A stretch of DNA of 64,000 bases from the NCBI GenBank assembly GCA_965221695.1, contig OZ244905.1:1024001-1088000 (forward strand), read 5' to 3'. The notes below the pieces were generated by a model, which saw nothing but the letters and a program-made list of their open reading frames with translations, had not been told where the DNA came from and searched no databases. This stretch comes from Gammaproteobacteria bacterium (GTDB lineage: Bacteria; Pseudomonadota; Gammaproteobacteria; Eutrophobiales; Eutrophobiaceae). Shown in pieces: positions 10,609 to 52,100 of this stretch; within the stretch, counting starts at the first letter, position 1; each line of letters begins with the position of its first letter. A program made the translations under genes and the position numbers.

Positions 10609-10638
10609 GTATCATTCTCCTGTTTAGTTGCTTTATTC

Positions 10639-10670: not shown

Positions 10671-10685
10671 AGCTGCTTCCCTTCT

Positions 10686-13135: not shown

Positions 13136-16100
13136 TAGCCCCACTCCAGGTTCAGCCAGAAGCTGTGCTCCGGTGATATGTTCCAGGATTCTTCGCGTAC
13201 GCCTTCAAAGCCTACCCGCAGTACGCTGCCACCCATTAGTACGTCACTCATCTCCGTGCCCAGTATGAAGCGGCGGGAACGTTCGCCCAGTCCCGAGGTA
13301 CGGCTGTATACGGTCCATAGCCTGCCCCGGATAAACAAGCCGTAACCTACCTCTGTTTCCATACCGAACCGGTACTCATCCGAAGTCGGACTGCGCTGGC
13401 CGCGCACCATGTCTTCAATATTACGCTCCCACAACTGCTGGGCGCCGCCCTCAATGCTGCCCAGACTGCGGGTCGGTCTGTAATGCGGGGTCAATTTCAT
13501 CATCAAGCCGGTGCCGTCCGCCTGGTATGCCTTCTCCAACAGACCACTTACCTGCCACTCACGGTAATTCGAGTTCGCCAGCAACCCGGCGCCGCGCAAC
13601 TGAGCCGCCCAGCCTGTCTCCGTCGCATAGCGCAGACCACCGGCAAGGTCCACCCCGGCCCCGCTTTGCGCATCGCCGCCGTCAGCACGCACGCCCAACT
13701 CAGCAAACTGCTCAAACTGCCCCCCTTCCGTCGCCGCCATATGCCTGCCTTCCAATACTGCCCGTACACGCTGCACATCCACATCCGGCGCATCCTCGAC
13801 CGACATTGCCGCATACATCGCCTCACCCTTGTAACCCAACTGCCAACCACCACTCCGGAAGAAACGACCCGTCACGCCCAATGCCGCCGAGTACAGGTCG
13901 AGATCGGACTCCTGACGGAAGTCATCATCGTCCACGGTCAGGTCCAACTCGCCCAAACCATACCCCAGTGAACCCCAGACGCTCAAGTCTTGCGAGACCG
14001 CCCAGTCCGCATACGGATGCAAACTCGTCAGGCTGATGTCGTAATCCCCTGTAAATGTGCGCCGGGCATCGCTGCGGTCGGTATAGTCAAACCGGGCCTC
14101 GGTGCGGGACAGGGCTGCACCCAACAGTAACTGCTCGGTCGCCTCGATATCTGCGCCAAGGTGGAAACTCGCCAGACCGCCGTCCCAATTCACCGCATTA
14201 TTGCCCTTGCTGCGCAGGTCGGTGTAACTGCCCTCGCCCCACAGGGTCACTACTTTGCCGGCCTCACCGGATTCGCTGCCGTCGTCAGCGCCGAAATTCA
14301 GCGGCAGTACAAACGACGCCCGGTTCAGCAACTGGCGCATATCAAGCCGCCGCCGATATTCCCAACCGCCCGGTGTGTCGAAGACATCGAACGCATCCGC
14401 TCTCATCTGTGTCCGTCCGCCGGACCGTGCCCCATTTGCAAACGGATCCACCCGACTTTCCATACCCGGCAATGCCTGGGTGTTGTTCCCGAACGCCTGA
14501 GCAAACGCCGACTGCGCCATTGCGATCTCATTACCCAGCAATACTGGCCCGGACTCGGTCTCTGTCTTGGCTCCGCCAGTTTGAGGCCCGAGTGCAACCG
14601 GATCTACCCGACTCTCCACACTCGGCATTGCGTGGGTCTTGCTCCCGAACGCCTGTGCCAGCGCCGACTGTGCTAATGCAATCTCATTACCCAGCAATAC
14701 AGCCCCGGACCGGGTCCCTGTATTGGCTTCGAGATCAGACGATATCACTCCGCCCGGAGGCAGCGCATCGATACCCAGCAGCGGCAATCCAGGCTCTACT
14801 CCATACTCAACTGGCTTCACGCTACGCGTCGTACTCGGTGTCGTACTCGGCGCCGGCCTCGGAGACTGACCAAAAATCCTGGTTGCTTGAACTGTCCCGG
14901 AGCGCGCCGCGCTGATCCGACTACCTATCACCTGTGTGGTGCGTCCAACCACCGACAATGTGAACTGCGGCAACAGATCCTCGTGCAGGTCTGTCACCAG
15001 CGGCGCATCGATCGGCACTTCGCTCACCGTTACTGCAAACGTATCGCTCGCCTCAGCGCCCGTTGCATCAGAGGCCGTTACCGTGATGTCCGCCGCGCCC
15101 ACCGACACGCCGGTCAGGGTCAGATCGCTGCCTGACAGGGTAACCGTTACGATGGATTCATCATCCGAGACTGCCGAGTAGGTCAGCGCATCGCCATCCG
15201 CATCGGTGAACACAGCGCTCACGTCAACCTGTAGCGTCTGGTCCACTTCAAGCTCACGGTCAAACAGCGGCATCGCTACTGTCGGCCCCCGGTTCGGCAT
15301 CACTACCGTGACAGCAAACCTGTCGCTGGCCGTGCCGCCGCGCCCGTCGTCCGCGGTCACCGTGATAGTCGCGTCGCCGGCGGATATGCCTGTCAGCGTC
15401 AGGGTATTACCGGTTAACGCTACCGTCACCACGGACTCATCCTCAGACACCGCCGTATACGTCAAGGCATCGCCGTCCGCATCGGTGAATACGCCACCCA
15501 ATTCAACCTGCTGCGCCTGATCTACGTCAAGCGACTGGTCAGACAACGGCGTCGCAACTTCCGGCGCCTCATTCGACAGCGTGACCGTCACCGTGAATTG
15601 GTCGCTCGCGGCGCCGCCGTAACCATCATCCGCGGTCACCGTGACGCCCGCTGCGCCGGCGGATACGCCGGTTAATGTCAGGGTATTGCCGGCCACCGCC
15701 ACTGTGACCACCGTCTCATCGGCAGACACCGCCGTATATGTCAGCGCATCGCCGTTCGCATCCGTGAAGGCGCCGCTCACATCAACCTGCCGGGTCTGAT
15801 CTACTGTAATCGTCTGGTCAGTCAATGGCGTCCTCACTACCGGCGACTCATTCTGCTGCACTACCGTGACTGTGAAGGTGTCGCTCGCCTCGCCGCCGCG
15901 CCCGTCAGACGCCGTTATCGTCACATTCGCTTCGCCAAGCGCCACGCCGGTCAGGGTCAAACGCTCTGTCGAATCAATATCCACCGTCACTACCGAGGAG
16001 TCATCAGCCGTCGCCGTGTAGCTCAGCACATCGCGATCCGGATCGTTAAACAAGTCTGCGATAGTCAGCGTCCGCCTCTCATCCACCAACAATGTCTGAT

Positions 16101-34100: not shown

Positions 34101-37100
34101 TCGTGGCGTCCTTGACCAGCAGGGTCCATTGGCTCCAGGCCGTGCCCGTCTTCTTCTTGTGGCGCACGTCGATGGTGTCCACCGTGCCCTTGTCCGGCAG
34201 GTCCCAGGTCAGGGTCACTTGGGTGTCGCCGGCGCTGGCCTGCAGGTTGCTCGGTGCCGACGGCTTCGCCAACTCCGGCGTGCCCTCGACGCTGGCCGAC
34301 GGACCCGTGCCGGCGGTGTTCACCGCACGCACCTCGAACACGTAGTCGGTGCCGTTGACAAGGTTCGTCACCCGGTAACGCTCGGCCGTGCCCGCCAGGG
34401 AGTTCCACTTGCTCCAGCCGGTGTCGGGGGCCGTCTTCACCTTGTAGCGCAGCTCGACGCTGTCAATCCGGCTGGTGTTCGTCGGCAGCGTCCACAGCAC
34501 CACCACCTCGGTGTCGCCCGGCACCGTGCTCAGATTGGTTGGCGCGCCCGGCGTCACCAGCGGCGCCGCCGGGGTGGCCGAGATCGACGCCGCCGCACCG
34601 GCGCCGGAGGCATTCTCCGCCCGTACCTCGAAGTTGTACAACTGCCCGTTGGTCAGGCCGGTCACGGTGTGAGTCGTGGCGTCCGCGGCCAGGTCAACCC
34701 AGGCCTGCCACTGCTTCGCCGTGTCCGCCTTGTGGCGCGCTTGCATCTTGGTCAGAACGCCCGAATCGGTCGGCAGGGTCCAGCTCAGGCCGACTTGCGT
34801 GTCGCCGGGGGCCGCCGCCAAGCCGGTCGGCGCCGACGGCGCCGCCAGCGGTGTCGCATCCACGCTCGCCACCTCGCCACGGCCCGCATCGTTGCGCGCG
34901 CGCACGATGAACGTGTACTCGGTGCCGTTGGTCAGGCCCGTGACCGTGTACGTGGTCGCATCCTCGTCTTTCAGGGTCACCCACGGCCGGTAGTTCGTCG
35001 CACTCTTTTCCTTGTACGCCACATCCACCCAGTCAATCTCGCTGGTGTTGGTCGGCAATACCCAGGTCAGGGTCACCTGCTGGTCGCCAGGCGCCGCGGT
35101 CAGGTCCGTCGGCTCACCCGGTATCGCCAGCACCGGGCGCGCCGTTATCCGCGCCTCGCCCTCGCCCGCGGTGTTCACCGCACGCACCGCAAACTGGTAG
35201 GTCTGACCGTTCTTCAGGTTCGTTACCGTGTGCTCCGTCGCATCAGCAGCCAGGTCCACCCACGCCGACCAGGTCGTCTCAGTGAGCCGCCGGTAGCGCA
35301 CCTGTACCTTGTCAAGCTCGCTGGCGTTGGTCGGCAATACCCAATTCAAGGTGACCCGGGTGTCGCCCGGGGTCGCCTTCAGGTCGGTCGGGGCGTCCGG
35401 CACCGCCAACTCAGGAATGGCCTTGCGCTCATCCGAGGGCGGGCCGGCGGCCGTGCCCACCACTGCCCGTACCTGGAACGTGTACTCGGTGCCGTTGGTC
35501 AGGTTCTCCACCGTGTGGCTGGTGGTCGTCGCGCCGCTGTTGGGAATGTCCACCCACGAGTCATACCCCACGCCCCTGTGGTCCGTCACCTGGTACTTGG
35601 TAATGCTGCGGTCGCGCGGGTCGTTCCAGGTCAACGTGACCCGGGTGTCACCCGCCCTGGCATTGAAGTTACTGGGCTTGGCCGGAGGCTCGTCAACATC
35701 TGTAATGGTGATGGCCACTTCCACCATGGCGCTGTTGCCGTCCTCGTCCGTGGCCGTGAGCGCATACTCGTAGATGTTGTTGGCGTCATCGTCTGTCGGG
35801 GACTCGTGGTCCTTGGCCGCCAGCGTCACGGTGGCGCCGGTGTTGGTCTCGTTCGACAGCGTGAACCCGCCCTGTCTGCGGGTGTCAGCGCCCCGGAGCG
35901 CCCAGGTGATGTCGCCCACCGGGGCGCCGGTTAAGGTCGCATTGCCGGTATAGGTCGCATTCTCCGGCTGGTCGGCATCAGCCACACCGCCGATGGTTAA
36001 GGTCGCGGCGATGCGAATGTCAAACGTCAGCTCTGCCGTGTCGCCGTTGGCGTCGGTCGCGGTGTAGGTGTACTCAGTGGCCGCCTGGGTTCCCGTCGGG
36101 GCGCCGGTTAAGGTGCGGGCGGTCGCATCAAACGTCAGACCCGCCGGCGGGGTCGGCGTTAAGGTATAGGTCAGTGGCGTATCGCCGCCGCTCGCCTCGG
36201 GCAGGTTCAGCGTCGGTATCGCAGTGTTCTGTGTGTAGTCCTGGTCGGCTATCGTCTTGTCGCCAAAACTCGGCAGCGCATTCGCAGTGACCGCTACGGT
36301 AGCCGTGAGACCGGCGTAGTTGCCGCCGGCGGCGGTTAAGGTGACCGTCGCAGCGCCGTCAGTCGGGTTGGCTGCCATGTTCACCGTGACCTTCTGCGCC
36401 GTGCTGTAGTTCGTGGCGGTGAATGTCAGCGGCGTCGGGCTGACCGTCACGTCCGTGTCATCACTGGTGAGTGTGACCGTGACCGGGGCGGTCGGGGCCG
36501 CCGCCAAGGCCACCGTGAACGTCTCGCTTGCGCCCGGTTGCACGTCAAGGGTCGTGGTTGAGACCACCAGGGCCGGCGGCGCCCTCGGTATGGCCGTGGT
36601 TGTCGCCGCCTCGCCATCACCGGCAGTGTTGGTGGCGCGCACCGCAAACGTGTAGTTCGTGCCGTTGGTCAGACCCGTCACCGTGGTCGTCGTTGCCGTG
36701 GCGTCGTTGAGGTTGGTCCAGGTGTCGGTACTGTCGTTGAACGGCAGGTCGGCAGTGGGCTTGTAGCGCATCTCCACCTTGGCAATCACACTGGCATTCG
36801 TCGGCAGCGTCCAGTTGAGCCTGGCCTGCTTGTCACCGGCCGTCGCGCTCAGGTCCGTCGGTGCGCCCGGTATCGCCAGCGTGGGTGTGGCCGTTACCGC
36901 CGCCGAGGCAGGACCCTCGCCGGTCGCATTCACCGCCCGTAGCCGGAACGCATAGGCCGTGCCGTTGGTCAGTCCTGTGACCGTGTGGGTCGTGGTCGTA
37001 TCATCGCTGTTGAGAATGTCCTCCCAGGTCGCGCTGTTCGAGCCGGCATCCAACGACTCGTAGCTCACCTGGTACTTGGTGATGCTGATATCTGACGGAT

Positions 37101-40100
37101 TGGTCCAATTCAGCGTGACCTCGGTGTCGCCCGCGGTCGCGGTCAGGCCGGTTGGCGCAACGGGTATCGGGGGCGCGGGTGTTGCCGTCACCGTTGCCGA
37201 TGCGGCGCTGTTGCCGCGGGCGTTTACGGCGCGGATTTCGAAGGCGTATTGGGTGCCATTGGCGAGGCCGCTGACGGTATGGGTGGTGGTGCCGGCGCCG
37301 CTGTTGCCGATGTCTTCCCAGGTCGCGGTGGCGGGCACGGTGGAACCCGCGCCGTAGCGCACCTGGTACCTGGTGATGTTGCTGTCGTTCGGGTTGGTCC
37401 AAGCCAGGTCAACCTGGGCATTGCCCGCGGTCGCCGCCAGGCCGGTTGGCGCGGCGGGGACTGTGGCTGGGGATGCTGTCTTGAAGACGATCTTCTGATT
37501 GCCGAACGCGTGTTCGATGTCGAAGTCGTTGTCGCCCAAGGTGCTTTGCAGGGTGCCCGTGAACGTGACCTGGTCTCCAGTCGGGTCGTAGATTGTCCCT
37601 GTGAGATTGTCCTGGTCTACCAGCATCCGGTTATAGAAGGTGGTGAATCGGAGGTAGAATTCGGCACTATAGTTAGACAAGTTTTCGGCTGAAGAGGGAC
37701 CTGAGAAAGGCTCATTAACCGTGGTCGTCAAGGCAGAGAGTTGATACGAACTCACCGGGCTGTTGATGCCGGACGAGTCCGCCCCGATGACCCAGATGTC
37801 AGTGTCATCGAAAGAAATTGCGTTTGAGAATCCGATCGTTGTATTAGGCCGGGAACCGGATGCTGAGAAATCCAAACTGCCAGCGGCGTCGATGGTCACG
37901 GTGCTGCCGTCGTCGGAGAAGGTCAAGGTCAGCGTGCGCGCCTGGGTCGGGGGCATCGGCGTGGCCGAGGCGGTGGCCGCGGGGCCGTCGCCGGCGGTGT
38001 TGGTGGCGCGTACTTCGAAGGTATAGCCAGTGCCGTTGGTCAGGCCGGTGGCGGTGTAGGCGGTGGCCGTGCCGACGAGGTCGGTCCAGGCATCGCTGGC
38101 GGTGAACGGCAGGTTCGCCGTCGCCTTCCAGCGCACTTGCACGGCGCCGATCAAGCTGGCGTTGGTCGGCAGGGTCCAGCTCAATTCGACCTGGGTGTCG
38201 CCGGCGGTGGCTGTCAGGTTCGTCGGTGCGTCCGGGACCGCCAGCTTCGGCTGGGCGCCCACGGCCACCGAGTCGCTGCTGCCGGCGGCGTTGGTGGCGC
38301 GTACCTCAAACTCGTAGCTCACGCCGTTGTCAAGACCGGTCTCGGTGTGGGTCGTGGCGTCCTTGGCCAGCAGGGTCCATTGGCTCCAGCTCGTGTCCGT
38401 CTTCTTCTTGTGGCGCACGTCGATGGTGTCGACCGCACCCTTGTCCGGCAGGTCCCAGGTCAGGGTTACTTGGGTGTCGCCGGCGCTGGCCTGCAAGTTG
38501 CTCGGCGCAGACGGCTTCGCCAGCTCCGGGGTACCCTCGACGCTGGCCGACGGACCCGTGCCCACGGTGTTCACTGCGCGCACCTCAAACACGTAGTCGG
38601 TGCCGTTGACCAGACCCGTCACCCGCTCCCGCTCGGCCGTGCCCGCCAATGAGCGCCATTCGCTCCAGCCGGTGTCAGGGGCCGTCTTCACCTTGTAGCG
38701 CAGCTCGACGCGGTCAATCTGGTTGGTGTTCGTCGGCAAGGTCCACAGTACCACCACCTCGGTATCGCCCGGCACCGTGCTCAGCTTGGTCGGGGCGCCC
38801 GGCGCCGTGGTCGGGGTCGCCGACACGGCCGCAGACGCACCGGCGCCAGACGCGTTCTCCGCCCGTACCTCAAAGTTGTACAGCTCGCCGTTGGTCAGAC
38901 CCGTCACCGTGTAGGTCGTGGCGTTCGCCGCCAGGTCCACCCAGGCCTGCCAGTCTTTCGCCGTGTCCGCCTTGTGGCGCACCTGCACCTTGGTCAGCGC
39001 GCCGGCGTTTGCCGGCAGCGTCCAGCTCAGGACGACCTGGGTGTCGCCGGGGGCCGCCGTTAAGCCGGTCGGCGCCAACGGTACCGCCACCGGCGTCGCA
39101 TCCACCTCCGCCACCGCGCCGCGGCCGGCGCCGTTCAGCGCACGCACGATGAACGTGTACTCGGTGCCGTTGGTCAGGCCGGTCACTTCGTGGCTGGTCG
39201 CATCCTTGGCCAGGTCCACCCAGGGCTGGAAGTTCGCCGCACTCTTCACCTTGTACGCCACCTGCATCCTGTCAATCTCGCTGGTGTTGGTCGGCAGGTC
39301 CCAGGTCAGGCCGACCTTGCCGTCGCCCGCGGTGGCCGTCAGGTTGGTCGGGGCGTCCGGGACCGCCAGCTTCGGCTGGGCGTCCACGGCCACCGAGTCG
39401 CTGCTGCCGGCGGTGTTGGTGGCGCGGACCTCAAACTCGTAGGTCACGCCGTTGTCAAGACCGGTCTCAGTGTGGGTCGTGGCGTCCTTGGCCAGCAGGG
39501 TCCATTGGCTCCAGGCCGTGTCCGTCTTCTTCTTGTGGCGCACGTCGATGGTGTCGACCGTGCCCTTGTCCGGCAGGTCCCAGGTCAGGGTCACTTGGGT
39601 GTCGCCGGCAGCGGCTTGCAAGTTGCTCGGCGCCGACGGCTTCGCCAGCTCCGGCGTGCCCTCGACGCTGGCCGACGGACCCGTGCCCACGGTGTTCACC
39701 GCGCGCACCTCGAACAGGTAGTCGGTGCCGTTCACCAGACCCGTCACCCGGGAACGCTCCGCCGTGCCGGCCAGGGAGCTCCATGCGCTCCAGCCGGTGT
39801 CGGGAGCCGTCTTCACCTTGTAGCGCAGCTCGACGCTGTCAATCCGGCTGGTGTTGGTGGGCAGGGTCCACAGCACCACCACCTCGGTGTCGCCGGGCAC
39901 CGTGCTCAAGTTGGTCGGCGCGCCCGGCGTAACCAGTGGCGGCGCCCGCGGCGTCGCCGCGCCGGTGGCGGGGTCGCCGTTGCCGGCGCTGTTGGTGGCG
40001 CGCACCTGGAAGGTGTAGCCGGTGCCATTGGTCAGGCCGGTGACCTTGTGGCTGGTGGCGTCGGCGGACGGCAGGTCGGTCCACTTGTCGCGGGCGTCGT

Positions 40101-43100
40101 CGAACGGCAGGTCCGCCGTGGCCTTCCAGCGCACCTGCACGGTGTCGATCTCGCTGGTGTTGGTGGGCAGCTTCCAGCCCAAGGCCACTTCGGTGTTGCC
40201 CCCCGTGGCGCTGAACTCGGTCGGCTTGCCGGGAACCGCCAGCTCCGGCGTTGCGGCCGTCCGCGCCGCCGGGCCGGCGCCGGACGCGCTCTCCGCGCGC
40301 ACTTCAAACAGGTAGTCCTGGCCGTTCTTCAGGTTGGTCACGGTGTGCGTGGTGGCGTCCGCCGCCAGGTCGGTCCAGGGTTCCCAAGTGGTTTCGCCCC
40401 GGGCCTGGTGGCGCACCTGCACCTTGTCCAGCACGCTGGCGTTCGTCGGCAGGTCCCAAGTCAGGCTCACGGAGCGGTCGCCCGCGGTGGCCGTCAGGTT
40501 CTCCGGGGCGTCCGGAACCGCCACTTGCGGCGTCGCCTTGACCGCGTCGGAGGCGTCGCCCAGCAGGCTGTCGGCCACGGCGCGGATCTGGAAGGTGTAC
40601 TCGGTGCCGTTGGTCAGGCCGGTCACCGTGTGGGTGACGGTGTCGGCGCCGCTGCCGGGAATGTCATCCCACAGGTTGATCCCCACGGTTTCAGAGTTGA
40701 AAATCTGGTACTTGGTGATGCTGTCGTCACCGGGGTTGGCCCAGATCAGGGTGACTTCCGCGTCGCCGGCTATGGCGACCAGGCTCCTCGGCTTGGCGGG
40801 CGGCTCCAGTTCGTCGTAGATCGCGGTGACCGTGGTCGCGGCGGCGTTGTCGTTGCCGGCGGCGTCCTGGGCCACGGCCGCCGCCACGGCGACGCTGAAC
40901 TCGCCCTCGGCCTTCGGCGTGATCTTCGCCGTGTAGACCGGCGCTGCCGGATCCGGTTGGGCGAAGGCCGAAGCGTCGGCGTTGGTCAATGTGATGTCGC
41001 CGGCCTCGAAGCCGGTGACGGACTCGCTGAAGGTGAAGGTGGCATCCACCGCTGCGTTGACCGTTCCGGAAACGCCCGTGATGGCCACCGTCGGCGCCGT
41101 GTTGTCCAGCTCGTACGTAATCTGATTGCCGCGGGGCGGGGTCCGGTCACGGAGCGTATTGCCAACGCAGTCCGTGACCTCCGCATGATTCAGCGTCAAG
41201 GTGGCCGTGCCGTTGTAGCCAGCCAATGCGCCGCCGGAAATGTTTACGACGTAGGGAGTGAGATCTCCGCAGGTATTCGGATCATCGGCCCCCGGGGTCA
41301 CGGTCAGCGTCGGCTCCTGCGTGATCGCCGGCACGAAGGTAACCGTATAGGCAGCCGCACTACCGGCCCCCGAATTGCGCATGCTTTCGTTGTATTGAAC
41401 CGACCACTGCACCGAATCCCGGTTGGTCGGCGACTTCGCGTCGGTGTTCCCGGTTTCGCTGTCGTAACGGAAAATTGAAGTTACGTGTGGAGGGGTCCTG
41501 TCCAGCAGGTAGGTGTCGTCGTTGGTCCCCGTCGGCGTGGTGTCGGTCAGCGCGTTGCCGGCGGTATCCTCGATGTCCTGGCCCTGCACGAACTCCAGGT
41601 TCACCGTGCCGGCCAGCACCACCAAATTGCCACCGGCCACGTTCACGTCCCAGGTGGTGCCGTCCGTGCCGACTGCCGTCGCCGTCTCCGTCCCGTCCGT
41701 ACCCGCAACGTGGAAGTCATCGTCGGACACATTCACCACCGCCTCGCTGAATGTCACCCGCCAGGTCAAGGACACCGCGTTGGTGGGCGAAGTTGGCGGA
41801 TCATGTCGCACAATGCTCGCCACCCGCGGCGCTTGGGTGTCCGCAGTGACGGTGATGTTGAACGTGAGGCTGGCCGTGTCGCCGTCGGCGTCAGTGGCGG
41901 TGTAAGTGTAGGCTGTCGCGCTCTGGGCCGTGGTCGGAGCGCCCGTCAGGGTGCGGGCGGTGTCGCTGAACGTCAGACCCGCCGGCGGGGTCGGTGTTAG
42001 GGTATACGTCAGTGTGCCGTCACCGCCGCTGGCCTGCGGCAGGTTCAGCGTGGTAATCGCCGAGTTCTGCATGTAGGTCTGGTCGGCAATGGTCTGGGTG
42101 CCGAAGGTCGGCAGCGCATTCGATGTGGCCGAGACCGTGGCCGCCTCGCCGTTGCCGGCGGTGTTGGTGGCGCGCACCGCAAACGTGTAGCCGGTGCCGT
42201 TGGTCAGGCCCGTCGCCGTGTAGGTGGTGGCCGTGCCGTCGTTGAGGTCGGTCCAGGTGTCGGTGGTGTCGTTGAACGGCAGGTCGGCGGTGGCCTTCCA
42301 GCGCACCTGCACGTCGCCGATTACGCTGGCATTGGTCGGCAGCGTCCAGTTGAGCGTGACCTGGGCGTTGCCGGCGGTGGCCGTCAGGTTGGTCGGCGCG
42401 TTCGGTACCGCCAGCTTCGGCTGGGCGGCCACGGCCACCGAGTCGCTGCTGCCGGCGGCGTTAGTGGCGCGTACCTCAAACTCGTAGCTCACGCCGTTGT
42501 CGAGACCGGTCTCAGTGTGGGTGGTGGCGTCCTTTGCCAGCAGGGTCCATTGGCTCCAGGCCGTGTCCGTCTTCTTCTTGTGGCGCACGTCGATGGTGTC
42601 GACCGTGCCCTTGTCCGGCAGGTCCCAGGTCAGGGTCACTTGGGTGTCGCCGCCAGCGGCTTGCAGGTTGCTCGGGGACGACGGCTTCGCCAGCTCCGGC
42701 GTGCCCTCGACGCTGGCCGACGGACCCGTGCCCACGGCGTTCACCGCGCGGACCTCGAACAGGTAGTCGGTGCCGTTCACCAGGCCCGTCACCCGCTCCC
42801 GTTCCGCCGTGCCCGCCAACGAGCGCCATTCGCTCCAGCCGGTGTCAGGGGCGGTCTTCACCTTGTAACGCAGCTCGACGCGGTCAATCTGGTTGGTGTT
42901 CGTCGGCAAGGTCCACAGCACCACCACCTCGGTGTCGCCCGGCACCGTGCTCAGCTTGGTCGGCGCGCCCGGCGCCGTGGTCGGGGTCGCCGATATGGCC
43001 GCGGACGCACCGGCGCCAGACGCGTTCTCCGCCCGTACCTCGAAGTTATACAACTCGCCGTTGGTCAGACCCGTCACGGTGTAGGTCGTGGCGTTCGCCG

Positions 43101-46100
43101 CCAGGTCCACCCAGGCCTGCCAGTCCTTCGCCGTGTCCGCCTTGTGGCGCACCTGTACCTTGGTCAGCGCGCCGGCGTTTGCCGGCAGGGTCCAGCTCAG
43201 GACGACTTGCGTGTCGCCGGGGGCCGCCGTTAAGCCGGTCGGCGCCGACGGAACCGCCACCGGCGTCGCATCCACCTCCGCCACCGCGCCGCGGCCCGCG
43301 CCGTTCAGCGCACGCACGATGAACGTGTACTCGGTGCCGTTGGTCAGGCCGGTGACGTCGTAACTGGTCGCATCCTTGGCCAGGTCAACCCAGGGCTGGA
43401 AGTTCGCAGCGCTCTTGACCTTGTACGCCACCTGCATCTTGTCTATCTCGCTGGTGTTGGTCGGCAGGTCCCAGGTCAGGCTCACCGCGCCGTCGCCTGC
43501 GGCGGCGGTCAGGTTGCCGGGGGCGTTCGGTACCGCCAGCTTCGGCTGGGCGTCCACCGCCACCGAGTCGCTGCTGCCCGCCGTGTTCGTGGCACGTACC
43601 TCAAACTCGTAGGTCACGCCGTTATCGAGACCGGTCTCAGTGTGGGTGGTGGCGTCCTTGGCCAGCAGGGTCCATTGGCTCCAGGCCGTGTCCGTCTTCT
43701 TCTTGTGGCGCACGTCGATGGTGTCGACCGTGCCCTTGTCCGGCAGGTCCCAGGTCAGGGTCACTTGGGTGTCGCCGGCAGCGGCCTGCAGGTTACTCGG
43801 GGCCGACGGCTTCACCAGCTCCGGCGTGCCCTCGACGCTGGCCGACGGACCCGTGCCCGCGGTGTTCACCGCGCGCACCTCGAACAGGTAGTCGGTGCCG
43901 TTGACCAGACCCGTCACCCGGTAACGTTCTGCCGTGCCGGCCAGGGAGCTCCATGCGCTCCAGCCGGTGTCGGGGGCCGTCTTCACCTTGTAGCGCAGCT
44001 CGACACTGTCAATCCGGCTGGTGTTCGTCGGCAAGGTCCACAGCACCACCACCTCGGTGTCGCCCGGCACCGTGCTCAGATTGGTCGGCGCGCCCGGCGT
44101 CACCAGCGGCGGCGCCCGCGGCGTCGCCGCGCCGGTGGCCGGCTCGCCGTTGCCGGCCTTGTTGGTGGCGCGCACTTCGAAGGTGTAACCGGTGCCGTTG
44201 GTCAGGCCGGTGGCGGTGTAGGCGGTGGCGTCAGAGGACGGCAGGTCGGTCCATTTGTCGCGGGCGTCGTCGAACGGCAGGTCCGCCGTCGCCTTCCAGC
44301 GCACCTGCACGGTGTCGATCTCGCTGGTGTTGGTGGGCAGCTTCCAGCCCAAGGCCACTTCGGTGTTGCCCCCCGTGGCGCTGAACTCGGTCGGCTTGCC
44401 GGGAACCGCCAACTCCGGCGTTCCGGCCGTCCGCGCCGCCGGGCCGGCGCCGGACCCGCTCTCCGCGCGCACTTCAAACAGGTAGTCCTGGCCGTTCTTC
44501 AGGTTGGTCACGGTGTGCGTGGTCGCGTCCGCGGCCAGGTCGGTCCAGGGTTCCCAAGTGGTTTCGCCCCGGGCCTGGTGGCGCACCTGCACCTTGTCCA
44601 GCACGCTGGCGTTGGTGGGCAGGTCCCAACTCAGGCTCACCGAGCGGTCGCCCGCAGTGGCCGTCAGGTTGTCCGGGGCGTCCGGAACCGCCACTTGGGG
44701 CGTCGCCTTGACCGCGATCGAAGGATCGCCCGGGACGTTGCCGGCCACGGCGCGGATCTGGAAGGTGTACTCCGTGCCGTTGACCAGGTTCTCCACGGTG
44801 TGGCGGGTGGTCGTGGCGTCACTGCCCTCGATGGGCTCCCAGGGATCGGAGCCGTATTGGTAGAGAACCTCGTACCCGGTGATGGTGGGGTCGTTCGGGT
44901 CGATCCAGGCCAGGGTGACCCTGGTGTCGCCGGCTATGGCGATCAGGTTCCTGGGGCTGGCGGGCGGCTCGACCGCCTTGGCGATGGTGATATTGAACGT
45001 CAGGCTCGCCGTGTCGCCGTCGGCGTCGGTGACGGTGTAGGTGTAGGCTGTTGCGCTCTGGACCGTGGTCGGGGTGCCCGTCAGCGTGCGGTTGGCAGCG
45101 TCAAAGGCCAGGCCCGCCGGTGCGGCCGGGGTCAGGCTGTAAGTCAGCGTGCCATTGCCGCCGGTGGCTTCGGGCAGGGTCAGCGTGGCGATGGCCGTGT
45201 TCCGGGTGTAGGTCTGGTCGTCGATAGTCTCGGTGCCGAAGCTGGGCGTCGTGTCGACCCGCGGCGTCGCGGTGGCGGTGTCGGAGGCGTCGCTGTTGCC
45301 GCCGTTGTTCACCGCCCGGATCTGGAAGGCGTATTGCTGGCCGTTGGTGAGGCCGGTCACCGTGTGGCTGGTGGTGTTGGCGCCGCTACCGGTGATGTCG
45401 GCCCAGGCTGTGCTGTCAGGAACGGTTGCGCCCTGGGCCTGGCGGAACTGGTACTTGGTGATGCTGGAATCGTTCGGGTTGGCCCAGTTCAAGGTGGCTT
45501 CGGTGTCACCGGCGGTGGCAGACAGGTTGGTCGGCGCGGCGGGCACCGGCGGCGGTGTTGCCGTGAAAATAATCTTCTGATTGCCAAACGTATGTTCGAT
45601 GTGGAAGTCATTGTCCCCAAGAGTCCCGGACAGGGTGCCGGTGAACGTTACATTCTTGCCCGTCAGGTCGTAAATGTTTCCGCTGAGATTGGTTTTATCT
45701 ATGTATAGCCTCGGAAGATAAGTGCTGAACCGGATGGCAAAATCGTGGCTGTAGTTGCTCAGGGTTTCGACTTTCGCATTACCCGTGTAGGTGCTCGTGC
45801 CGGTGGTCACAAAGTTCGGGAGCGAGTTGTACCAGCTAAGTGGTGTGGTATCCGACTGAGGCATAATTTGCCATATCTCCGTATCGTCTATAAGCAGACC
45901 TGAGAATCCCTCACCTTGCGGCGTCGTATCCTGGAGATAATTGAAGCCCGAGACATCCAAACTGCCCGAAGCGGCAATGGTGACGGTAGTTCCATCATCG
46001 GAGAACGTGAACGTCAGCGTGCGTGCCGGGGTTGGCGCGGTGGGCGTCGCCGTCACCGTGGCCGAGGCGTCGCTGTTGCCGGTCGCATTGACTGCGCGAA

Positions 46101-49100
46101 TCTCGAATGCGTATTGCGTGCCGTTGGTCAGGCCGGTCACGTCGTGGCTGATGGTGGTCTCGCCGCTGCCGGTGATGTCCCCCCAGGTGGCGGTGGCCGG
46201 CACGGTTGACCCGGCGCCGTAGCGGACCTGGTACTTGGTGATGGTGTCGTCGTTCGGGTCGGTCCAATTGAGCGTTACCTGCGTGTCGCCCGCAGTCGCG
46301 GCCAGGCCGGTGGGGGCGTCAGGCACAGGCGGCGTTGCCGTGAATATGATCTTCTGATTGCCGATGGCGTGCTCGATGTGGAAGTCGTCATCGCCCAGAG
46401 TGGTGAGCAGGGTGCCTGTGAAGGTGATGTCTTGATCCAGACTGTAAATGCCTCCGCTAATGTGGCTAGCGCTTAGTTCCAGGTCCGCAAGTAGAGGATC
46501 TGTTCCATGGCCGAAGTGAAATCCCGAGTTATAACTGCCTAAATTCTCCACTTCCCTATTTCCCGTATAGGAACTCTCACCGGTAGTGGAGATATCGGGA
46601 AGCTGGTTGTAATAATTTACCGATAACCTGCTGGAAGGAAAGAGCACCCACTGAGACAGATCACCCATCTTGATCACGGGCCGGGCGTTCTGGTTAGTAG
46701 TGCTACTAAGATTGAAACCCGAGACATCCAGACTACCCGAAGCGGCAATGGTCACGGTGCTACCGTCATCGGAGAACGTGAACGTCAGCGTGCGTGCCGG
46801 GGTTGGCGCGGTGGGTGTGGCCGTCACCGTGGCCGAGGCATCGCTGTTGCCGGTGGTGTTCACCGCGCGGATTTCAAACGCATATTGCGTGCCGTTCGTC
46901 AGGCCGGTCACGTCGTGGCTGATGGTGGTCGCGCCGCTGCCGGTAATGTCCTCCCAGGTGGCGGTGGCCGGCACGGTGGACCCGGCGCCGTAGCGCACCT
47001 GATACTTGGTAATGGTGTCGTCGTTCGGGTCGGTCCAGTTCAGAGTCGCCTGCGTATCACCGGCTGTCGCAGTCAGACCCGTCGGCGCAGCCGGTACCGT
47101 GGCGGTGGTGGTCGTGAATATGATCTTCTGATTGCCAATGGCGTGCTCAATGTGGAAGTCGTTGTCGCCCACGGTGTTGAGCACGGTGCCAGTGAACGTC
47201 ACTTCGTCACCTGTCGGGTCGTAGATGTCCCCGGTGAGATTGGCTTTGTCTACGAACAGTAACTTTCTGTAAGTGTTGAACCGGAGACTGAATTCGTAGT
47301 TGTAGTTGCTCAGGTTGATAATTTCTTGGTTACCCGAGTACGAATTCAAACCAGTAGTTACGATATTTGGGAGCGAGTTATAACGGCTTATCGGTGTGGT
47401 ATTGTCAGATGGCGTTGCAAAAATCTGCCATTTCTCAAATTCCTGATTAAATAGGACATATCCCACAGACGTCACTAGCGTCGGCACCGTATCTCCCGCA
47501 GGACTGAAACCCGAAACATCCAAACTACCCGAGGCGGCAATAGTCACAGTGCTGCCATCATCGGAGAACGTGAACGTCAGCGTACGTGCCGGGGTCGGCG
47601 CGGTGGGCATCGCCGTCACCGTGGCCGAGGCATCGCTGTTGCCGGTCGCGTTCACCGCGCGGATTTCAAACGCATATTGCGTGCCGTTGGTCAGGCCCGT
47701 TACGGTGTGGGTCTTGGTCTCGTCGTCGCTGCCGGTAATGTCCTCCCAGCTAGCAGTGGCGGGTACGGTAGACCCGGCGCCATAGCGCACCTGGTACTTG
47801 GTGATGCTGGTGTTTTGCGGGTCGGTCCAATTGAGCGTCACCTGCGTGTCGCCTGCTGCCGCAGACAGGCCCGTGGGCGCGGCCGGGGCCGGCAGCGTTG
47901 GCGTGGCCGTGGCCGTCGCCGCAGTACTGTTGCCGGCGGTGTTGGTGGCGCGTACGGCAAACGTGTAACCCGTGCCGTTGGTCAGGCCCATGGCCGTGTA
48001 GGTCGTGGCTGTTGCGGCCAGGTCAGTCCACGTATCGGTGTTGTCATTAAACGGCAGGTCGGCGGTGGCCTTGTAGCGGACCTGGATGTTGGTAATCGTG
48101 CTGGCGTTGGTCGGGTTGGTCCAGGTCAGGGTGACCTGGGCGTTGCCCGCCGTTGCCGTCAGGCCAGTCGGGGCGTCGGGTATCGCCAGCGCAGGGGTGG
48201 CCGTGACCGTGGCCGACGCATCACTGTTGCCGGTCACATTGACTGCGCGAATCTCGAATGCGTATTGGGTGCCGTTGGTCAGGCCCGTTACTATGTGGCT
48301 GGTGGTCGTGGCACCACTGCCGGTAATGTCGTCCCAGGTGGCGGTGGCGGGCACGGTGGACCCGGCGCCGTAGCGTACCTGGTACTTGGTGATGGTGTCG
48401 TCGTTCGGGTCGGTCCAGTTCAGAGTCACCTGCGTATCACCGGCTGTCGCAGTCAGACCCGTCGGCGCTGCCGGTACTGTAGCGGTGGTGGTCGTGAATA
48501 TGATCTTCTGCGTGCCAATCGCGTGCTCAATGTGGAAGTCATTGTCCCCAAGAGTTCCGGACAGTGTGCCGGTGAACGTCACATTCTTGCCCGTCAGGTC
48601 ATAAATGTTTCCGGTGAGATTGGCCTTGTCTATGTACAACCACTTAAAATTGGTGTCGAAATAGATAGCAAAATCGTGGCTGTAGTTGCTCAGGGTTTCG
48701 ATTTGCGCATTACCCGTGTAGGTGCTCGTGCCTGTGGTCACAAAGTTCGGGAGCGAGTCGTACCAGCTAAGTGGTGTGGTATCCAACTGAGGCATAATTT
48801 GCCATATCTCCGTATCGTCTATAAGCAGACCTCTGTATCCCTCAGCTTGCGGCGTGCTATCCAGGACATAATTGAAGCCCGAGACATCCAAACTGCCCGA
48901 AGCGGCAATGGTGACGGTAGTTCCATCATCGGAGAACGTGAACGTCAGCGTGCGTGCAGGGGCCGGCGCTCTCGGTGTGGCCGTGGCCGTCGCCCGAGTA
49001 CTGCTGCCGGCGGTGTTGGTGGCACGTACTTCGAAGGTGTAGCCGGTACCGTTGGTCAGGCTCGTGGCCGTGTAGGTCGTGGCCGTGCCGTCGTTGAGGT

Positions 49101-52100
49101 TGGTCCAGGTGTCGGTGGTGTCGTTGAAAGGCAGGTCAGCGGTGGCCTTCCAGCGGACCTGTATATCGCCAATCACGCTGGTATTGGTCGGCAGCGTCCA
49201 GGTCAGGGTGACCTGGGCGTTGCCCGCTGTTGCCGTCAGGCCGGTCGGGGCGTCGGGTATCGCCAGCGCGGGGGTGGCCGTCACCGTGGCTGACGCATCG
49301 CTGTTGCCGGTCACATTGACTGCGCGAATCTCAAATGCGTATTGGGTGCCGTTGGTCAGGTTGTCAACGGTGTGGGTCGTGGTCGTGGCGCCGCTGCCGG
49401 TGATGTCCTCCCAGGTGGCGGTGGCGGGCACGGTTGACCCGGCGCCGTAGCGCACCTGGTACTTGGTAATGGTGTCGTCGTTCGGGTCGGTCCAGTTCAG
49501 AGTCGCCTGCGTATCACCGGCTGTCGCAGTCAGACCCGTCGGCGCCGCCGGTACTGTGGCGGTGGTGGTCGTGAAGATGATCTTCTGCGTGCCAATCGCG
49601 TGCTCAATGTGGAAGTCATTGTCCCCAAGAGTTCCGGACAGTGTGCCGGTGAACGTCACATTCTTGCCCGTCAGGTCATAAATGTTTCCGGTGAGATTGG
49701 CCTGGTCCAATTCCAAGGTCTGATCCAAACTGTCGTTTCGAAAATAGATGCTGAAGTCGTGGCTGTAGTTGCTCAGGGTTGCGATTTCCCCATTACCCGT
49801 ATAGGTATTCAACCCGGTGGTTGTGATATTCGTGAACGAGTCATATTTGCTAATTGGTGTGGCGTCCAGGAGCTGCGGATGAATCTGCCATCTCTTCAGA
49901 TCGCCCAAAAATAGACCTGGGTACCCATCACTATTATTCAACGTCGTATTAAATGGATTACCGAAGTCGGAAACATCCAAACTGCCCGAAGCAGCAATGG
50001 TGATGGTAGTTCCATCATCAGAGAACGTGAACGTCAGCGTGCGTGCAGGGGCCGGCGCCCTCGGTGTGGCCGTGGCGGTGGCCGCCGTACTGTTGCCGGC
50101 GGTGTTGGTGGCGCGCACCGCAAACGTGTAATCGGTGCCGTTGGTCAGGCTTATCGCCGTGTAGGTGGTGGCGGTGGCAGCCAGGTTGGTCCAGGTGTCG
50201 GTATTGACAAACGGCAGGTCAGCCGTGGCCTTGTAGCGGACTTGCAGGTTGTCAAGCGTGCTGGCGTTGGTCGGGTTGGTCCAGTTTAAGATAACCTGGG
50301 TGTCACCGGCGGTGGCTGTCAGGTTCGTCGGTGCGTCGGGGGCAGACAAGGTCGGGGTGGCCGTGACCGTGTCCGAGTCCGGGCCGTTGGCGGCGCCGAC
50401 CACCGCGCGTATCTGGAACGCATACACCTGGCCGTTGGTCAGGTTGTCAACGGTGTGGGTCGTGGTCGTCGCGGTGGCGCCGGCGATGTCGGTCCAGGGG
50501 GTGGTGGCCGGTATGGTGTTGCCCTGGGCATAGCGCACCTGGTACCTGGTGATGGTACTGTCGTTCGGGTTGGTCCAGGTCAGCGTGACCTCGGTGTCGC
50601 CGGCAGCGGCAGTCAGATTAGTGGGCTTGGCCGGGGCCTCGTCCACATCGGTGACCGTCACCGTGTAGACGGCTGAGGTCACCGTGTTGGTGTTCGCATC
50701 CGTCGCCGTTAACGTGTACTCGTAAGTGTTGCCGGTGTCACTGTCGGTCGGGGTCTCAAAGTCCCGCGCCGCCAGGCTCACCCGCGCCCCGGTCTGACTC
50801 TGGTTCGCCGCCGGCAGCGTAAACTCGGCCGCATCCGCCCCGCCCAGTGTCCACGTGACCGCGCCCAGGGCGCCGGTCAAGGATGCATCCACCGTGTAAG
50901 CCTGGTTCTCGCTCACGCTGGCATCGGCCAGGCCCGTCAGCGTCAGTGTGGCGGGCTCATCGATATTGGTAATGGTGATGGCCACGTTCACCGTGTCGCT
51001 GTTGCCGTCATCGTCCGTCGCCGTTAACGTGTACACATAAATGTTATTGGCGTCGTTGTCCGTCGGGACCTCGAAGTCCTTGGCGCCCAGGGTTACGGTG
51101 GCGCCGGTGTTGCTCTGGTTCGACAGGGTAAAGCCGCTCGCATTGGCGTCGTCGCCGGTCAACGCCCAGGTGATGTTGCCCACCGGCGTGCCGGTCAAGG
51201 TCGCATTGCCGGTGTAGGCCGTATTCTCGGCCAAGTTGGCATCGGCCACACCGCCGAGGGTTAGCGTGGGCGTAATACGGATGTCGAACGTCAGCGTGGC
51301 CGTATCCCCGTCCGCATCGGTGGCGGTGTAGGTGTATTCGGTGGCCGCCTGCGGCGCGGTCGGCGTGCCGGTTAAGGTACGGGCGGTGGCGTCAAACGTC
51401 AGACCCGCCGGCGGGGTCGGCGTTAACGTGTACGCCAGTGTGCCGTCACCGCCGGTCGCTTGCGGCAGGTTCAGCGTGGTAATCGCCGTACCCTGCGGGT
51501 AGGTCTGGTCGGCAATGGTCTGCGTGCCGAAGCCCGGCAGCGCATTCGCGGTGACCGCGACCGTGGCCGTGAGGCCGGCGTAGTTGCCGCCGGTAGCGGC
51601 TAAGGTGAGGGTGGCGTTGCCGTTAGGTGACGGGTTGGCCGCCATGGTCACCGTGACCGTCTGTGCGGTGTTGTAGTTGGTGGCGCTGAACGTCAGCGAC
51701 GTCGGGTTGACCGTCACATTGGTGTTGTTGCTGGCCACGGTGATGGCGACCGCGGCGGTCGGGGCCGCGACCAGGGTCACATCAAAGGTGTTGCTGCCGC
51801 CCTCATCGACCACCAGGGTGGCCGGTGCGACGGTAATGGCCGGGTCCGGTCTGGGGGTGGCGGTGACCGTGTCCGAGTCCGGGCCGTTGACGGCGCCGAC
51901 CACCGCGCGTATCTGGAACGCATACACCTGGCCGTTGGTCAGGTTGTCAACGGTGTGGGTCGTGGTCGTCGCGGTGGCGCCGGCGATGTCGGTCCAGGGG
52001 GTGGTGGCCGGTATGGTGTTGCCCTGGGCATAGCGCACCTGGTACCTGGTGATGGTACTGTCGTTCGGGTTGGTCCAGGTCAGCGTGACCTCGGTGTCGC

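Follow-up and report, generated by a model that had tools for sequence, protein, structure and literature searches.

Within the 64,000-nucleotide window analyzed from the genome of a Gammaproteobacteria bacterium, two neighboring copies (c2 and c5) of an unnamed domain, both within one giant open reading frame (ORF), differ in almost nothing but amino-acid changes, since one of them evolved rapidly right after it had arisen by partial duplication. The pattern reflects ordinary divergence between paralogs and not the work of a hypermutation system. In the full account that we favor, to which we assign a probability of roughly 55%, the shared tract is a young piece of a mosaic, the burst of change in c5 was an adaptive shift of specificity, and purifying selection followed.

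The giant ORF contains FN3 arrays as well as the Ig-like families He_PIG, Big_2, Big_9, and Big_12 (Pfam matches), and in the 1,400 aa surrounding c2 and c5, the fn3 family (PF00041) is matched at E=2.2e-98 with 8 stretches above the curated cut-off. A by-eye reading of the translation gives a putative N-terminal signal peptide. The same ORF holds eight copies (c1-c8) of the unnamed domain, which is ~154 aa long. In protein-language-model features, the C-terminal region is close to clusters carrying the PF03797 Autotransporter family (0.96, 28/30 matches), and the C-terminal 400 aa are probably an outer-membrane anchor like an autotransporter beta-domain. The last 500 aa have no Pfam match at E<=5, PF03797 included, and the C-terminal region has neither an NCBIfam match nor a PDB sequence match. 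The layout is given in the table below, in which the A of ARTLTF is codon k=0.

Table. Positions in the window of the giant ORF, its domain copies, the parts of c2 and c5, and the ten replacement codons (c2/c5)
Feature	Position	Strand	Remark
Giant ORF, 13,912 aa, FN3-rich	13129..54867	(-)	ORF list and translation
Domain copy 1 (c1)	49573..50046	(-)	
Domain copy 2 (c2), aa 1971-2124	48496..48957	(-)	ancestral state at 9/10 differing codons
Domain copy 3 (c3)	47116..47589	(-)	protein equals that of the sole copy in the neighboring 7,764-aa paralog
Domain copy 4 (c4)	46342..46797	(-)	counterpart not found in sister genome G008
Domain copy 5 (c5), aa 2948-3101	45565..46026	(-)	derived state at 9/10 differing codons
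Domain copy 6 (c6)	37483..37941	(-)	
Domain copy 7 (c7)	32089..32553	(-)	
Domain copy 8 (c8)	28444..28917	(-)	counterpart not found in sister genome G008
Low-dS tract, c2 side (k0-97)	48664..48957	(-)	sister of c5 tract
Low-dS tract, c5 side (k0-97)	45733..46026	(-)	
c2 C-terminal third (k98-153)	48496..48663	(-)	other ancestry; holds decapeptide and recombination boundary
c5 C-terminal third (k98-153)	45565..45732	(-)	many silent differences from c2 (dS 0.47)
C-terminal 400 aa of giant ORF, putative anchor	13132..14331	(-)	language-model features
k30 V/L (GTC/CTC)	codon start c2 48865, c5 45934	(-)	
k31 L/Q (CTG/CAG)	codon start c2 48862, c5 45931	(-)	
k33 S/T (AGC/ACG)	codon start c2 48856, c5 45925	(-)	
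k37 A/G (GCT/GGT)	codon start c2 48844, c5 45913	(-)	
k40 Y/F (TAC/TTC)	codon start c2 48835, c5 45904	(-)	
k41 R/S (AGA/TCA)	codon start c2 48832, c5 45901	(-)	
k57 L/S (TTG/TCG)	codon start c2 48784, c5 45853	(-)	
k66 D/N (GAC/AAC)	codon start c2 48757, c5 45826	(-)	
k84 Q/K (CAA/AAA)	codon start c2 48703, c5 45772	(-)	
k85 I/V (ATC/GTC)	codon start c2 48700, c5 45769	(-)	

When c2 and c5 are compared codon for codon, they align without gaps, as the initial annotation had stated, and its count of ten replacement codons against one purely silent codon is confirmed within 56 codons (k30-85). The base changes that it listed (C>G, G>C, T>C, and G>A) are all present, and the adjacent decapeptide that it described as replaced (IYFDTNFKWL versus IRFSTYLPRL) differs at 6/10 residues. 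The DNA of the two copies is identical over k0-29, and the 98-codon low-dS tract contains 2 silent codons (k74, ACA/ACC, and k96). The pattern shifts at k98, beyond which silent differences are frequent: in the C-flank (k110-153), 10.5 changes are silent and 5.5 are replacements, with a dS of 0.47 versus ~0.03 in the tract. The changes, almost all of them replacements, occupy a core of ~60 codons at first and second codon positions. The ten replacements are clustered (4/9 gaps are <=4 nt, simulation p=0.011-0.034) and therefore possibly represent fewer than ten independent events. They sit on the most variable columns of the family, with a mean column entropy of 2.43 bits at the ten sites versus 1.60 across the remaining 68 sites of the tract (MWU p=0.003). 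As targets, high-entropy columns fit relaxed constraint as well as specificity.

The domain copies are recombination mosaics, of which the low-dS tract is one piece. In a sliding nearest-neighbor scan of 22 extended domain copies, the nearest neighbor of c2 is c5 over k2..98 (0.89-1.00 nt identity, with the runner-up at 0.61-0.81), while the flanks of c2 are nearest to c1, with 100% identical DNA over k114-154. The flanks of c5 are instead nearest to the copies m2, c4, n1, and c7, and further downstream to n1, m2, and c7. The nearest relative thus changes along the sequence, with sharp shifts in silent divergence (2/98 codons versus a dS of 0.47). Conversion elsewhere in the family is also evident: the c5 copy of the sister genome G008 has a private conversion tract in k6-19 (8 silent changes and 1 replacement), and m2 of the source genome is near c7 and far from its own orthologue. 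We therefore trace k0-97 of c2 and c5 to a recent common ancestor via a partial duplication or gene-conversion tract, while their C-terminal thirds and FN3 flanks derive from other copies.

The relatives of these copies in other genomes allow the changes to be polarized. In G008, whose flanking genes are 98-99% identical to those of the source genome over 9.9 kb, the copies share all of the c2/c5 differences except S2004, such that 9/10 replacement differences and both silent ones follow the pattern c2=c2' versus c5=c5'. A c5-type copy in a third genome (L019) keeps 9/10 c5 states, and the core tree is (L020,((c2,c2'),(c5',(c5,L019)))). The outgroup copy L020 carries the c2 residue at 9/10 sites, with an identical codon at 6. 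With this polarity, the c5 stem receives 9 replacement codons (10 nt) without any silent change, and the c2 stem receives 2 silent changes without any replacement; the asymmetry (10N:0S versus 0N:2S) gives p=0.002, and Fisher's test gives p=0.015. The c5 lineage hence fixed nine replacement codons and no silent change after the tract event, while the c2 lineage stayed ancestral. Since then, the c5 type has been inherited almost unchanged in three genomes, with 8/10 derived states shared by each of its three carriers (G008 departs by S41T, and L019 by N66G). In 8/10 pairs of orthologous cores, only 0-4 replacement changes separate the two members. The sequence types of the domain recur at 92-99% nt identity across metagenome-assembled genomes with distant titles.

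The dN/dS of the c2/c5 pair in the region considered by the initial annotation is high (ML omega 2.29; LRT against omega=1, p=0.34), falling to 1.23 in the low-dS tract (p=0.77), a value biased upward because the tract was picked by its few silent sites, and to 0.81 (NG86) or 0.91 (ML, p=0.84) in the predefined core (k28-110). These values are far above those of the FN3 spacers, which are 0.08 for the same pair and 0.16-0.20 between orthologues, and also exceed the 0.12 of the C-flank. The finding therefore survives the comparison with the spacers that the initial annotation had named as a possible refutation. In an ML branch model (6 taxa, 98 codons), the c5-stem omega reaches the upper bound over a background of 0.24 (LRT 7.42, p=0.006), with both the foreground branch and the tract picked post hoc, from data already seen. 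Against omega=1, the same stem gives an LRT of 2.02 (p=0.155 two-sided, 0.078 one-sided), and an exact test yields p=0.081 for 10N:0S and p=0.104 when 9 codons are counted instead. With the predefined core, the c5-stem omega of 1.41 does not differ from the background of 0.48 (p=0.18), and the stems of the sequence types show no excess over neutrality (binomial p 0.83-1). The c2/c5 excess is thus beyond chance relative to the normal constraint of the family, but not relative to neutrality. The interpretation given in the initial annotation is only partly supported: the strong diversifying selection that it proposed is not established, as omega=1 is rejected by no test (pair p=0.34-0.84; stem p=0.155; exact p=0.081). 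Purifying selection has acted on the cores since c2 and c5 separated: over 8 orthologue pairs, the concatenated cores have an omega of 0.29, below 1 at p=0.004, and among the 22 cross-genome within-type pairs listed, the 19 with a nucleotide identity of 91% or more have omegas of 0.05-0.86 (17/19 <=0.39).

The absence of any test rejecting neutrality leaves room for a reading in which c5, briefly redundant, drifted at an omega of ~1, partly through a few multi-nucleotide events at tolerant positions, and was then re-constrained, with no adaptive shift. We consider this quite possible, although we lean against it. It is consistent with the predefined-core pair omega of 0.81-0.91, with the clustering of the changes, and with their location in the least conserved columns. 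Family-wide, moreover, the core omega of 0.45 is three times that of the flank (0.15), and therefore the core is tolerant in general. Multi-nucleotide mutations are reported to mimic lineage-specific positive selection (bioRxiv 10.1101/165969), and the c2/c5 pattern resembles this artefact in having clustered, almost purely replacement changes on one branch. The artefact is a caveat and not a biological system in its own right, and because of it we place less weight on the 10N:0S count. What drift accounts for less readily is that 10/10 replacement changes fell on one of two sister lineages with zero silent changes alongside them, that 8/10 derived states were then kept in the three c5-type carriers, and that within-type omega is low. 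A functional shift would lead one to expect such renewed constraint, yet it is also compatible with drift followed by constraint. A different history would make c2 and c5 old paralogs in which repeated gene conversion erased silent differences, while selection kept the amino-acid differences as islands of divergence. Conversion is indeed active in the family, as seen in the k6-19 run of G008, the identical C-terminal third of c2 and c1, and m2, and such islands are reported from other systems (PMC3728101, PMC7042247). However, L020 carries the c2 residue at 9/10 sites, and therefore the c5 states are young and derived, not old. Differing codons are also only 1-4 apart in places (k30/31/33 and k37/40/41), between which conversion tracts would need many ends, and the pattern c2=c5 versus c2'=c5', expected if conversion were still going on inside each genome, is almost absent from the four-copy table, with only k17 and k164 approaching it. 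We thus regard concerted evolution as improbable.

The compact core, with its nearly pure replacements at first and second codon positions, is also what a diversity-generating retroelement (DGR) or another dedicated system writing changes into the core might leave. We find this highly implausible. The source genome (3,539,060 bases, 1 contig, 96.85% complete) has 0 matches to the reverse transcriptase family PF00078 (RVT_1), a search that produced matches in 3/14 control genomes, and a blastn search of this genome (word size 7), with the c2 core of 270 nt as query, returns the known coding copies (c5 90%, c1 72%, others <=71% identity) and short chance matches, with no template repeat. Neither of the two elements whose presence elsewhere would, by the initial annotation, have refuted its reading is found in this 3.54-Mb genome, and for that reason the system is not a DGR. 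With the ancestral c2/L020 state as the would-be template, the changed bases are G,T,C,A,A,G,T,G,C,A, or 3/10 adenines. The initial annotation had excluded a DGR on the grounds that the changes are not adenine-restricted; its conclusion stands on other grounds, but its argument was weak, as two variable repeats need not differ only at adenines. The non-DGR targeted process that it offered instead is unsupported, as three genomes share the differences as stable, inherited states. The variable region is stable between close strains (9/10 sites the same in G008, 9/10 c5 states in L019), orthologous cores differ little, and the contigs of three sequencing runs show no core hypervariability beyond the alleles of relatives, a weak point since contigs drop rare variants. 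An assembly or collapse error would be conceivable in so repetitive a gene, over which the short-read unitigs are fragmented, and is nevertheless scarcely credible here: the genome is a single 3.54-Mb contig, the c2 and c5 sequences recur in the independent G008 assembly and the c5 states in L019, a 372-nt unitig (run X2) over the c5 core (45707-46078) agrees with the window at every base, and run X1 gives depth over 30/30 bins.

The domain itself matches nothing in Pfam, NCBIfam, PDB, or BFVD fold searches. Its AF2 model is confident (pLDDT 92.9, pTM 0.89), with the least confident blocks at residues 31-60, which is the variable stretch. Among homologous proteins with a domain-level match, the first copy starts within the first 135 residues in 37/42, and in the full-length homologues that were read, the domain directly follows a signal-peptide-like stretch and FN3 repeats occur in the same protein. 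From this, we infer that the domain is a putative ligand-binding (adhesive) unit, with core positions that would set its specificity.

Several known systems offer comparisons. The c2/c5 pair is like DGR variable regions in that a surface or binding protein has its changes gathered in a short stretch, with replacements at codon positions 1 and 2 making up nearly all of them, but it lacks a reverse transcriptase, a template repeat, and an adenine direction, and its variable stretch is not C-terminal, has no recognized C-type-lectin-like fold, and is stable across genomes. Repeated binding modules that differ in function occur in large autotransporter or RTX-type adhesins, with the repeated binding domains of Haemophilus Hsf/Hia and the ligand-binding region of giant repeat adhesins as examples. 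The protein studied here is likewise very large, with Ig/FN3-like spacers and several head-like modules that differ in sequence; unlike in those adhesins, the module is without a database match, the anchor is without a PF03797 HMM match, and binding is putative. A further comparison is asymmetric duplicate divergence, or escape from concerted evolution, as reported for a ruminant CEACAM1 paralog (PMC7042247), with islands of divergence amid gene conversion reported in another study (PMC3728101). Such cases share with c2/c5 a conversion or duplication tract of very low silent divergence, amino-acid differences concentrated in a binding region (putative in c2/c5), and one conservative and one accelerated copy. 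Unlike these separate genes, c2 and c5 are domains inside one bacterial gene, and their excess over neutrality is non-significant.

In the adaptive account that we favor, c2 and c5 are paralogs among the eight copies of an all-beta module not previously described, and the giant protein that carries them is an FN3-spaced surface protein that is probably anchored in the outer membrane. After the partial duplication or conversion tract that gave c2 and c5 their shared N-terminal two-thirds, the burst in c5 would be an adaptive shift of specificity in the newly made copy. It would have been reached by selection on ordinary mutations, either point changes or short multi-nucleotide ones, without dedicated mutagenic machinery. 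Purifying selection would then have acted on the new c5 type. More broadly, and only tentatively, the module may be a specificity cassette of giant adhesins that exists in discrete types. Purifying selection would maintain each type, and horizontal transfer, at times of the cassette by itself, would carry it between distantly related bacteria. New types would arise when a copy made by partial duplication goes through a very brief adaptive burst at hypervariable core positions, and the c2-to-c5 split would be the youngest such birth.

Eight copies (c1–c8) of an undescribed ~154-aa module lie between the FN3 domains of the giant protein, each beginning ARTLTFTFSDDG and finishing GDNDFHIEHAIGNQKIIF. 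Around c2 and c5, the pair under study, PF00041 (fn3) is the sole Pfam domain (E = 2.2e-98, 8 stretches within 1,400 aa), and elsewhere in the protein Pfam matches the Ig-like domains He_PIG, Big_2, Big_9 and Big_12. The genome, a single contig of 3,539,060 bases, holds five further copies: one in the neighbouring 7,764-aa paralog (n1), three in a 3,984-aa protein (m1–m3) and a distant one (31% identity) in a protein of 3,431 aa. Language-model features liken the C-terminal 400 aa of the giant protein to autotransporter beta-domains (score 0.96, 28/30 matches); its C-terminal anchor region has no sequence match in Pfam, NCBIfam or the PDB, and the protein may be autotransporter-like.

The 7,764-aa paralog adjoins the giant gene, shares the N-terminus and C-terminal anchor of its product, carries one module that is identical to c3 in protein sequence, and contains a lengthy tandem array of He_PIG-type repeats, each ~111 aa long and perfectly identical to the others. 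The c1–c5 cluster is compositionally distinct, with a G+C content of 0.58–0.60 versus 0.64–0.69 over most of the remaining giant gene and 0.63–0.71 in related MAG loci. By eye, large near-identical internal duplications (aa ~10230–10800 and ~11880–12300) can be seen outside c2/c5, among them two occurrences of a block beginning TTPSSDNIAVIVTKPHTKLPASRDSDNVFPFKV, as can long FN3 super-units repeated between aa ~3300 and ~10200.

Coordinates of the giant ORF, module copies and associated features
Feature	Coordinates	Strand	Description
Giant ORF, 13,912 aa	window 13129-54867	minus	ORF list and translation
c2	window 48496-48957		gap-free alignment with c5
c5	window 45565-46026		gap-free alignment with c2
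c4	window 46342-46797		module copy
c6	window 37483-37941		module copy
c7	window 32089-32553		module copy
c8	window 28444-28917		module copy
m1	genome 2325473-2325931		in L016; module 1 of 3 in the 3,984-aa protein
m2	genome 2326847-2327308		in L016
7,764-aa paralog	window 59419-64000, continuing past the window to genome 1106710	minus	
Low-G+C region	window 46001-50000		c1-c5 cluster
Internal duplications	window ~17000-24200		
Private run in the sister genome's c5 counterpart	L013:5549-5590		k6-19

Numbering codons from the A of ARTLTF (k0), c2 and c5 are identical in DNA over k0–29. Between k30 and k85 they differ by 10 replacement codons (V/L, L/Q, S/T, A/G, Y/F, R/S, L/S, D/N, Q/K and I/V) and one silent codon (k74), and the second silent codon of the pair is k96. 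In the decapeptide that follows (IYFDTNFKWL/IRFSTYLPRL), 6/10 residues differ, silent differences are common from k98 on, and the C-flank (k110–153) has 10.5 silent and 5.5 replacement differences with a dS of 0.47. The initial annotation had described a gap-free pair with 10 replacement codons, one silent change and a replaced decapeptide, and our codon recount finds that description accurate.

Pairwise omega was estimated with our own GY94 likelihood code and a likelihood ratio test (LRT) against omega = 1. For c2/c5, we obtain 2.29 (p = 0.34) in the 56 codons where the pattern was originally noticed. The ratio is 1.23 (p = 0.77) in the 98-codon low-dS tract (k0–97) and 0.91 (p = 0.84; Nei–Gojobori 0.81) in the core, k28–110, which was defined beforehand from the family alignment. 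Picking a stretch for its few silent changes shifts omega upward. The spacers of the same pair give 0.12 (C-flank) and 0.08 (downstream FN3), so that by comparison with spacers, the yardstick proposed in the initial annotation, the c2/c5 stretch is far less constrained. The strong diversifying selection proposed there is borne out only to the extent that omega lies well above that of the spacers, whereas the stretch does not depart significantly from neutrality (p = 0.34–0.84). Other sister pairs within the genome give omega values of 1.39 (c6/m1) and 0.40 (c7/m2), and c3/n1 differ by no replacement and three silent changes.

A sliding nearest-neighbour scan of 22 extended copies, taken both from this genome and from a sister genome, resolves the pair as a mosaic. 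Upstream of the domain and into its start, c2 is nearest to c1; over k2–98 its nearest copy is c5 (0.89–1.00 nt identity, runner-up 0.61–0.81); and over k114–154 it is again c1, at 100%. For the c5 flanks, the nearest copies are m2, c4, n1 and c7. Because the nearest copy to c2 changes along the sequence, the low-dS tract is one recombination or gene-conversion piece, and the segment once described as replaced wholesale is its boundary.

Among 40 relatives searched, only the sister genome (G008) carries the module, and it does so alone among 22 genomes of the same genus. The two genomes are 98–99% identical across 9.9 kb of neighbouring genes, and counterparts exist for c1, c2, c3, c5, c6, c7, n1 and m1–m3. 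At 9/10 replacement sites, as well as at the two silent ones, c2 and c5 each match their own counterpart, with S2004 being the only replacement difference private to the c2 studied here. As these states are common to both genomes, the differences are old, fixed and stable. Across eight orthologue pairs, the concatenated cores have an omega of 0.29 (p = 0.004 below 1), and the orthologous N-flanks, C-flanks and downstream FN3 domains have values of 0.04, 0.13 and 0.16, respectively.

Several copies depart from this pattern. In the 13,077-aa orthologue of the sister genome, c4 and c8 have no counterpart, and module copy number thus varies between genomes that are 98–99% identical in neighbouring genes. 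The m1 module lies directly behind a signal-peptide-like stretch, and 21 replacement and 4 silent changes separate its core from that of the G008 orthologue in L014 (omega 1.6, not significant), compared with 0–4 replacement changes in each of eight other orthologous cores. The m2 copy is near c7 (11 replacement, 10 silent) and far from its G008 orthologue (38 and 14 in the core); from these counts, a c7-type copy looks to have converted it once the two genomes had split. Finally, the c5 counterpart in G008 carries a cluster of private changes, 8 silent and 1 replacement, within 14 codons of an otherwise invariant N-flank; this marks a short tract of gene conversion, with another copy as the donor.

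Two loci from other genomes bear on the polarity of the c2/c5 differences: L019, a c5-type copy with 95.5% nt identity to c5, and L020, which resembles c2 (77.5% nt identity) but branches outside c2 and c5 in the core tree. Since L020 has the c2 residue at 9/10 sites, the replacements are assigned to the c5 stem, which has 9 replacement codons (10 nt changes) and no silent change; the c2 stem has no replacement and 2 silent changes (asymmetry p = 0.002; Fisher p = 0.015). Under neutrality (pN = 0.778), the exact probability of 10/10 replacements is 0.081, or 0.104 if 9 codons are counted. Branch models were fitted with a foreground branch picked after the data had been seen. In a six-taxon model of the tract, background omega is 0.24 and that of the c5 stem is at the upper bound (LRT 7.42, p = 0.006); against omega = 1, the c5 stem gives an LRT of 2.02 (p = 0.155, two-sided). 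The c5-stem and background values are 1.41 and 0.48 in the core (p = 0.18) and 0.82 and 0.23 over the whole domain (p = 0.038).

The ten changed sites fall on the most variable columns of the family (mean entropy of 2.43 bits versus 1.60 across the remaining 68 sites of the tract; MWU p = 0.003). They are also clustered, with 4/9 gaps of ≤4 nt (simulation p = 0.011–0.034), as in TAC AGA to TTC TCA and CAA ATC to AAA GTC. Neighbouring positions may be free to vary, or be selected, together; alternatively, some changes may be single multi-nucleotide events. Such events are described as mimicking lineage-specific positive selection (bioRxiv 10.1101/165969), and the clustering, with the multi-nucleotide events it may reflect, therefore weakens the 10:0 count further.

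Family-wide rates were drawn from 56 copies, after L058, L060 and L061 were dropped for mismatching the end-motif pattern and L059, L062 and the distant copy in the 3,431-aa protein for excessive divergence. Under GY+F3X4 with one omega throughout, the estimate is 0.45 in the core and 0.15 in the flanks. By parsimony, replacement-rich branches include the c6-clade stem (13:1 replacement to silent), G000 m1 (11:1), the m1'-clade stem (7:1) and the c5 stem (13:2 when the whole core is counted), none of which individually exceeds the neutral expectation of 78%. In a rule-based comparison of the core, type stems have higher omega than within-type branches (0.58–0.85 versus 0.29–0.33; Fisher p from 0.004 to 0.00002), a contrast that we discount because setting types by amino-acid distance makes it circular and because the flanks show the same odds ratio (1.75–2.06).

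The module is rare: profile searching across 1.84 billion representative proteins yields only 43 at E ≤ 0.001. Domain-level matches exist for 42 of them, and in 37 of these 42 the first copy begins inside the opening 135 residues, several proteins being fragments; in the full-length examples inspected, a signal-peptide-like stretch is followed by the module and then by FN3 repeats. AlphaFold2, given a 32-row alignment, yields a confident all-beta model (pLDDT 92.9, pTM 0.89), whose lowest-confidence blocks are residues 31–60 (76–86), the variable stretch. The sequence has no match in Pfam or NCBIfam and a best PDB profile E-value of 0.25. Foldseek finds no fold at E ≤ 0.001 in the PDB with models of pLDDT 68 and 92.9 (best E 0.023, TM 0.13, for the latter) or in BFVD (best 0.084), and ESM-Atlas features reach 0.80 to unnamed viral clusters, which is under the meaningful level.

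A scan of species-representative genomes found 45 module loci, in MAGs titled Gammaproteobacteria, Pseudohongiella, Ca. Foliamicus, Alphaproteobacteria, Ca. Azophilus, Nitrospirales, Arenicellales, Ca. Rariloculaceae, Ca. Multivoraceae, Ca. Porisulfidus, Paracoccaceae and Rhodobacterales. The copies form discrete sequence types, and among the 22 cross-genome pairs listed, 19 reach 91.6–99.1% nt identity between very differently titled MAGs, crossing titles of order, class and even phylum (99.1% for L034, Gammaproteobacteria, and L040, Nitrospirales; 98.5% for c7 and a Ca. Azophilus MAG). Omega is ≤0.39 in 17/19 of these pairs. High identity spans kilobases in L038/L031 (96.4% over 5.4 kb), while c6 is 94.8% identical to L052 over 2990–3762, from the first codon of the module to ~300 nt past it, with flanks at ~65–68%. 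This suggests that adhesin modules may have been exchanged horizontally in recent times, in places as the cassette alone.

What produced the c2/c5 pattern can be weighed against these results. Targeted hypermutation, one of the initial proposals, is highly improbable: reverse transcriptase matches (PF00078) number zero in the genome, the c2 core has no template-like copy there, the ancestral base is adenine at only 3/10 changed positions, and the states are stable over three genomes. The accompanying remark that the changes are neither adenine-restricted nor the work of a DGR therefore holds. The chance of an assembly artefact is slighter still, given that the c2/c5 states recur across the three genomes and that, among Logan contigs of three runs containing the region, a 372-nt X2 unitig over the c5 core equals the window sequence. 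Variant letters in these contigs, in which rare variants are invisible, are alleles of relatives (e.g., L019 GGC/TAT at 45827–45829) or c2 cross-mapping onto c5. The initial reading thus stands in part: the pattern is real and less constrained than the spacers, but omega does not significantly exceed 1, and targeted diversification is not supported.

We consider the most likely mechanism (probability of about 0.55) to be a chimeric origin of c5 followed by an adaptive specificity shift in the new copy and then conservation. The first two-thirds of c5 derive from a c2-type copy; ten replacement changes and no silent change were then fixed on a very short branch, and c5 has been conserved since. 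The module may be the binding unit of a giant surface adhesin in which core positions set specificity, and the burst would then be an adaptive shift. Neutral or relaxed drift with multi-nucleotide events is a real possibility, if one we would bet against, as the replacement excess is statistically inseparable from neutral change. It is improbable that c2 and c5 are an old pair kept alike by gene conversion except in islands maintained by selection, because the c5 states are derived by comparison with the outgroup and the differing sites are just 1–4 codons apart.

The c2/c5 copies are a young, asymmetrically diverged paralog pair within a recombining repeat protein. The evolutionary pattern is of a familiar kind, here in a domain family that is undescribed, and the replacement excess is mostly ordinary, being expected of such a paralog. 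The value of the pair lies in c5 as a cleanly polarised, dated case of how a repeated surface module gains a new variant inside one gene; if core positions set ligand specificity, the pair would offer a ready ten-residue swap experiment. The module itself is noteworthy as a rare, family-less domain that folds confidently as all-beta, and the 92–99% DNA identity of its types across differently titled MAGs would point, at the level of sequence, to the exchange of adhesin modules.
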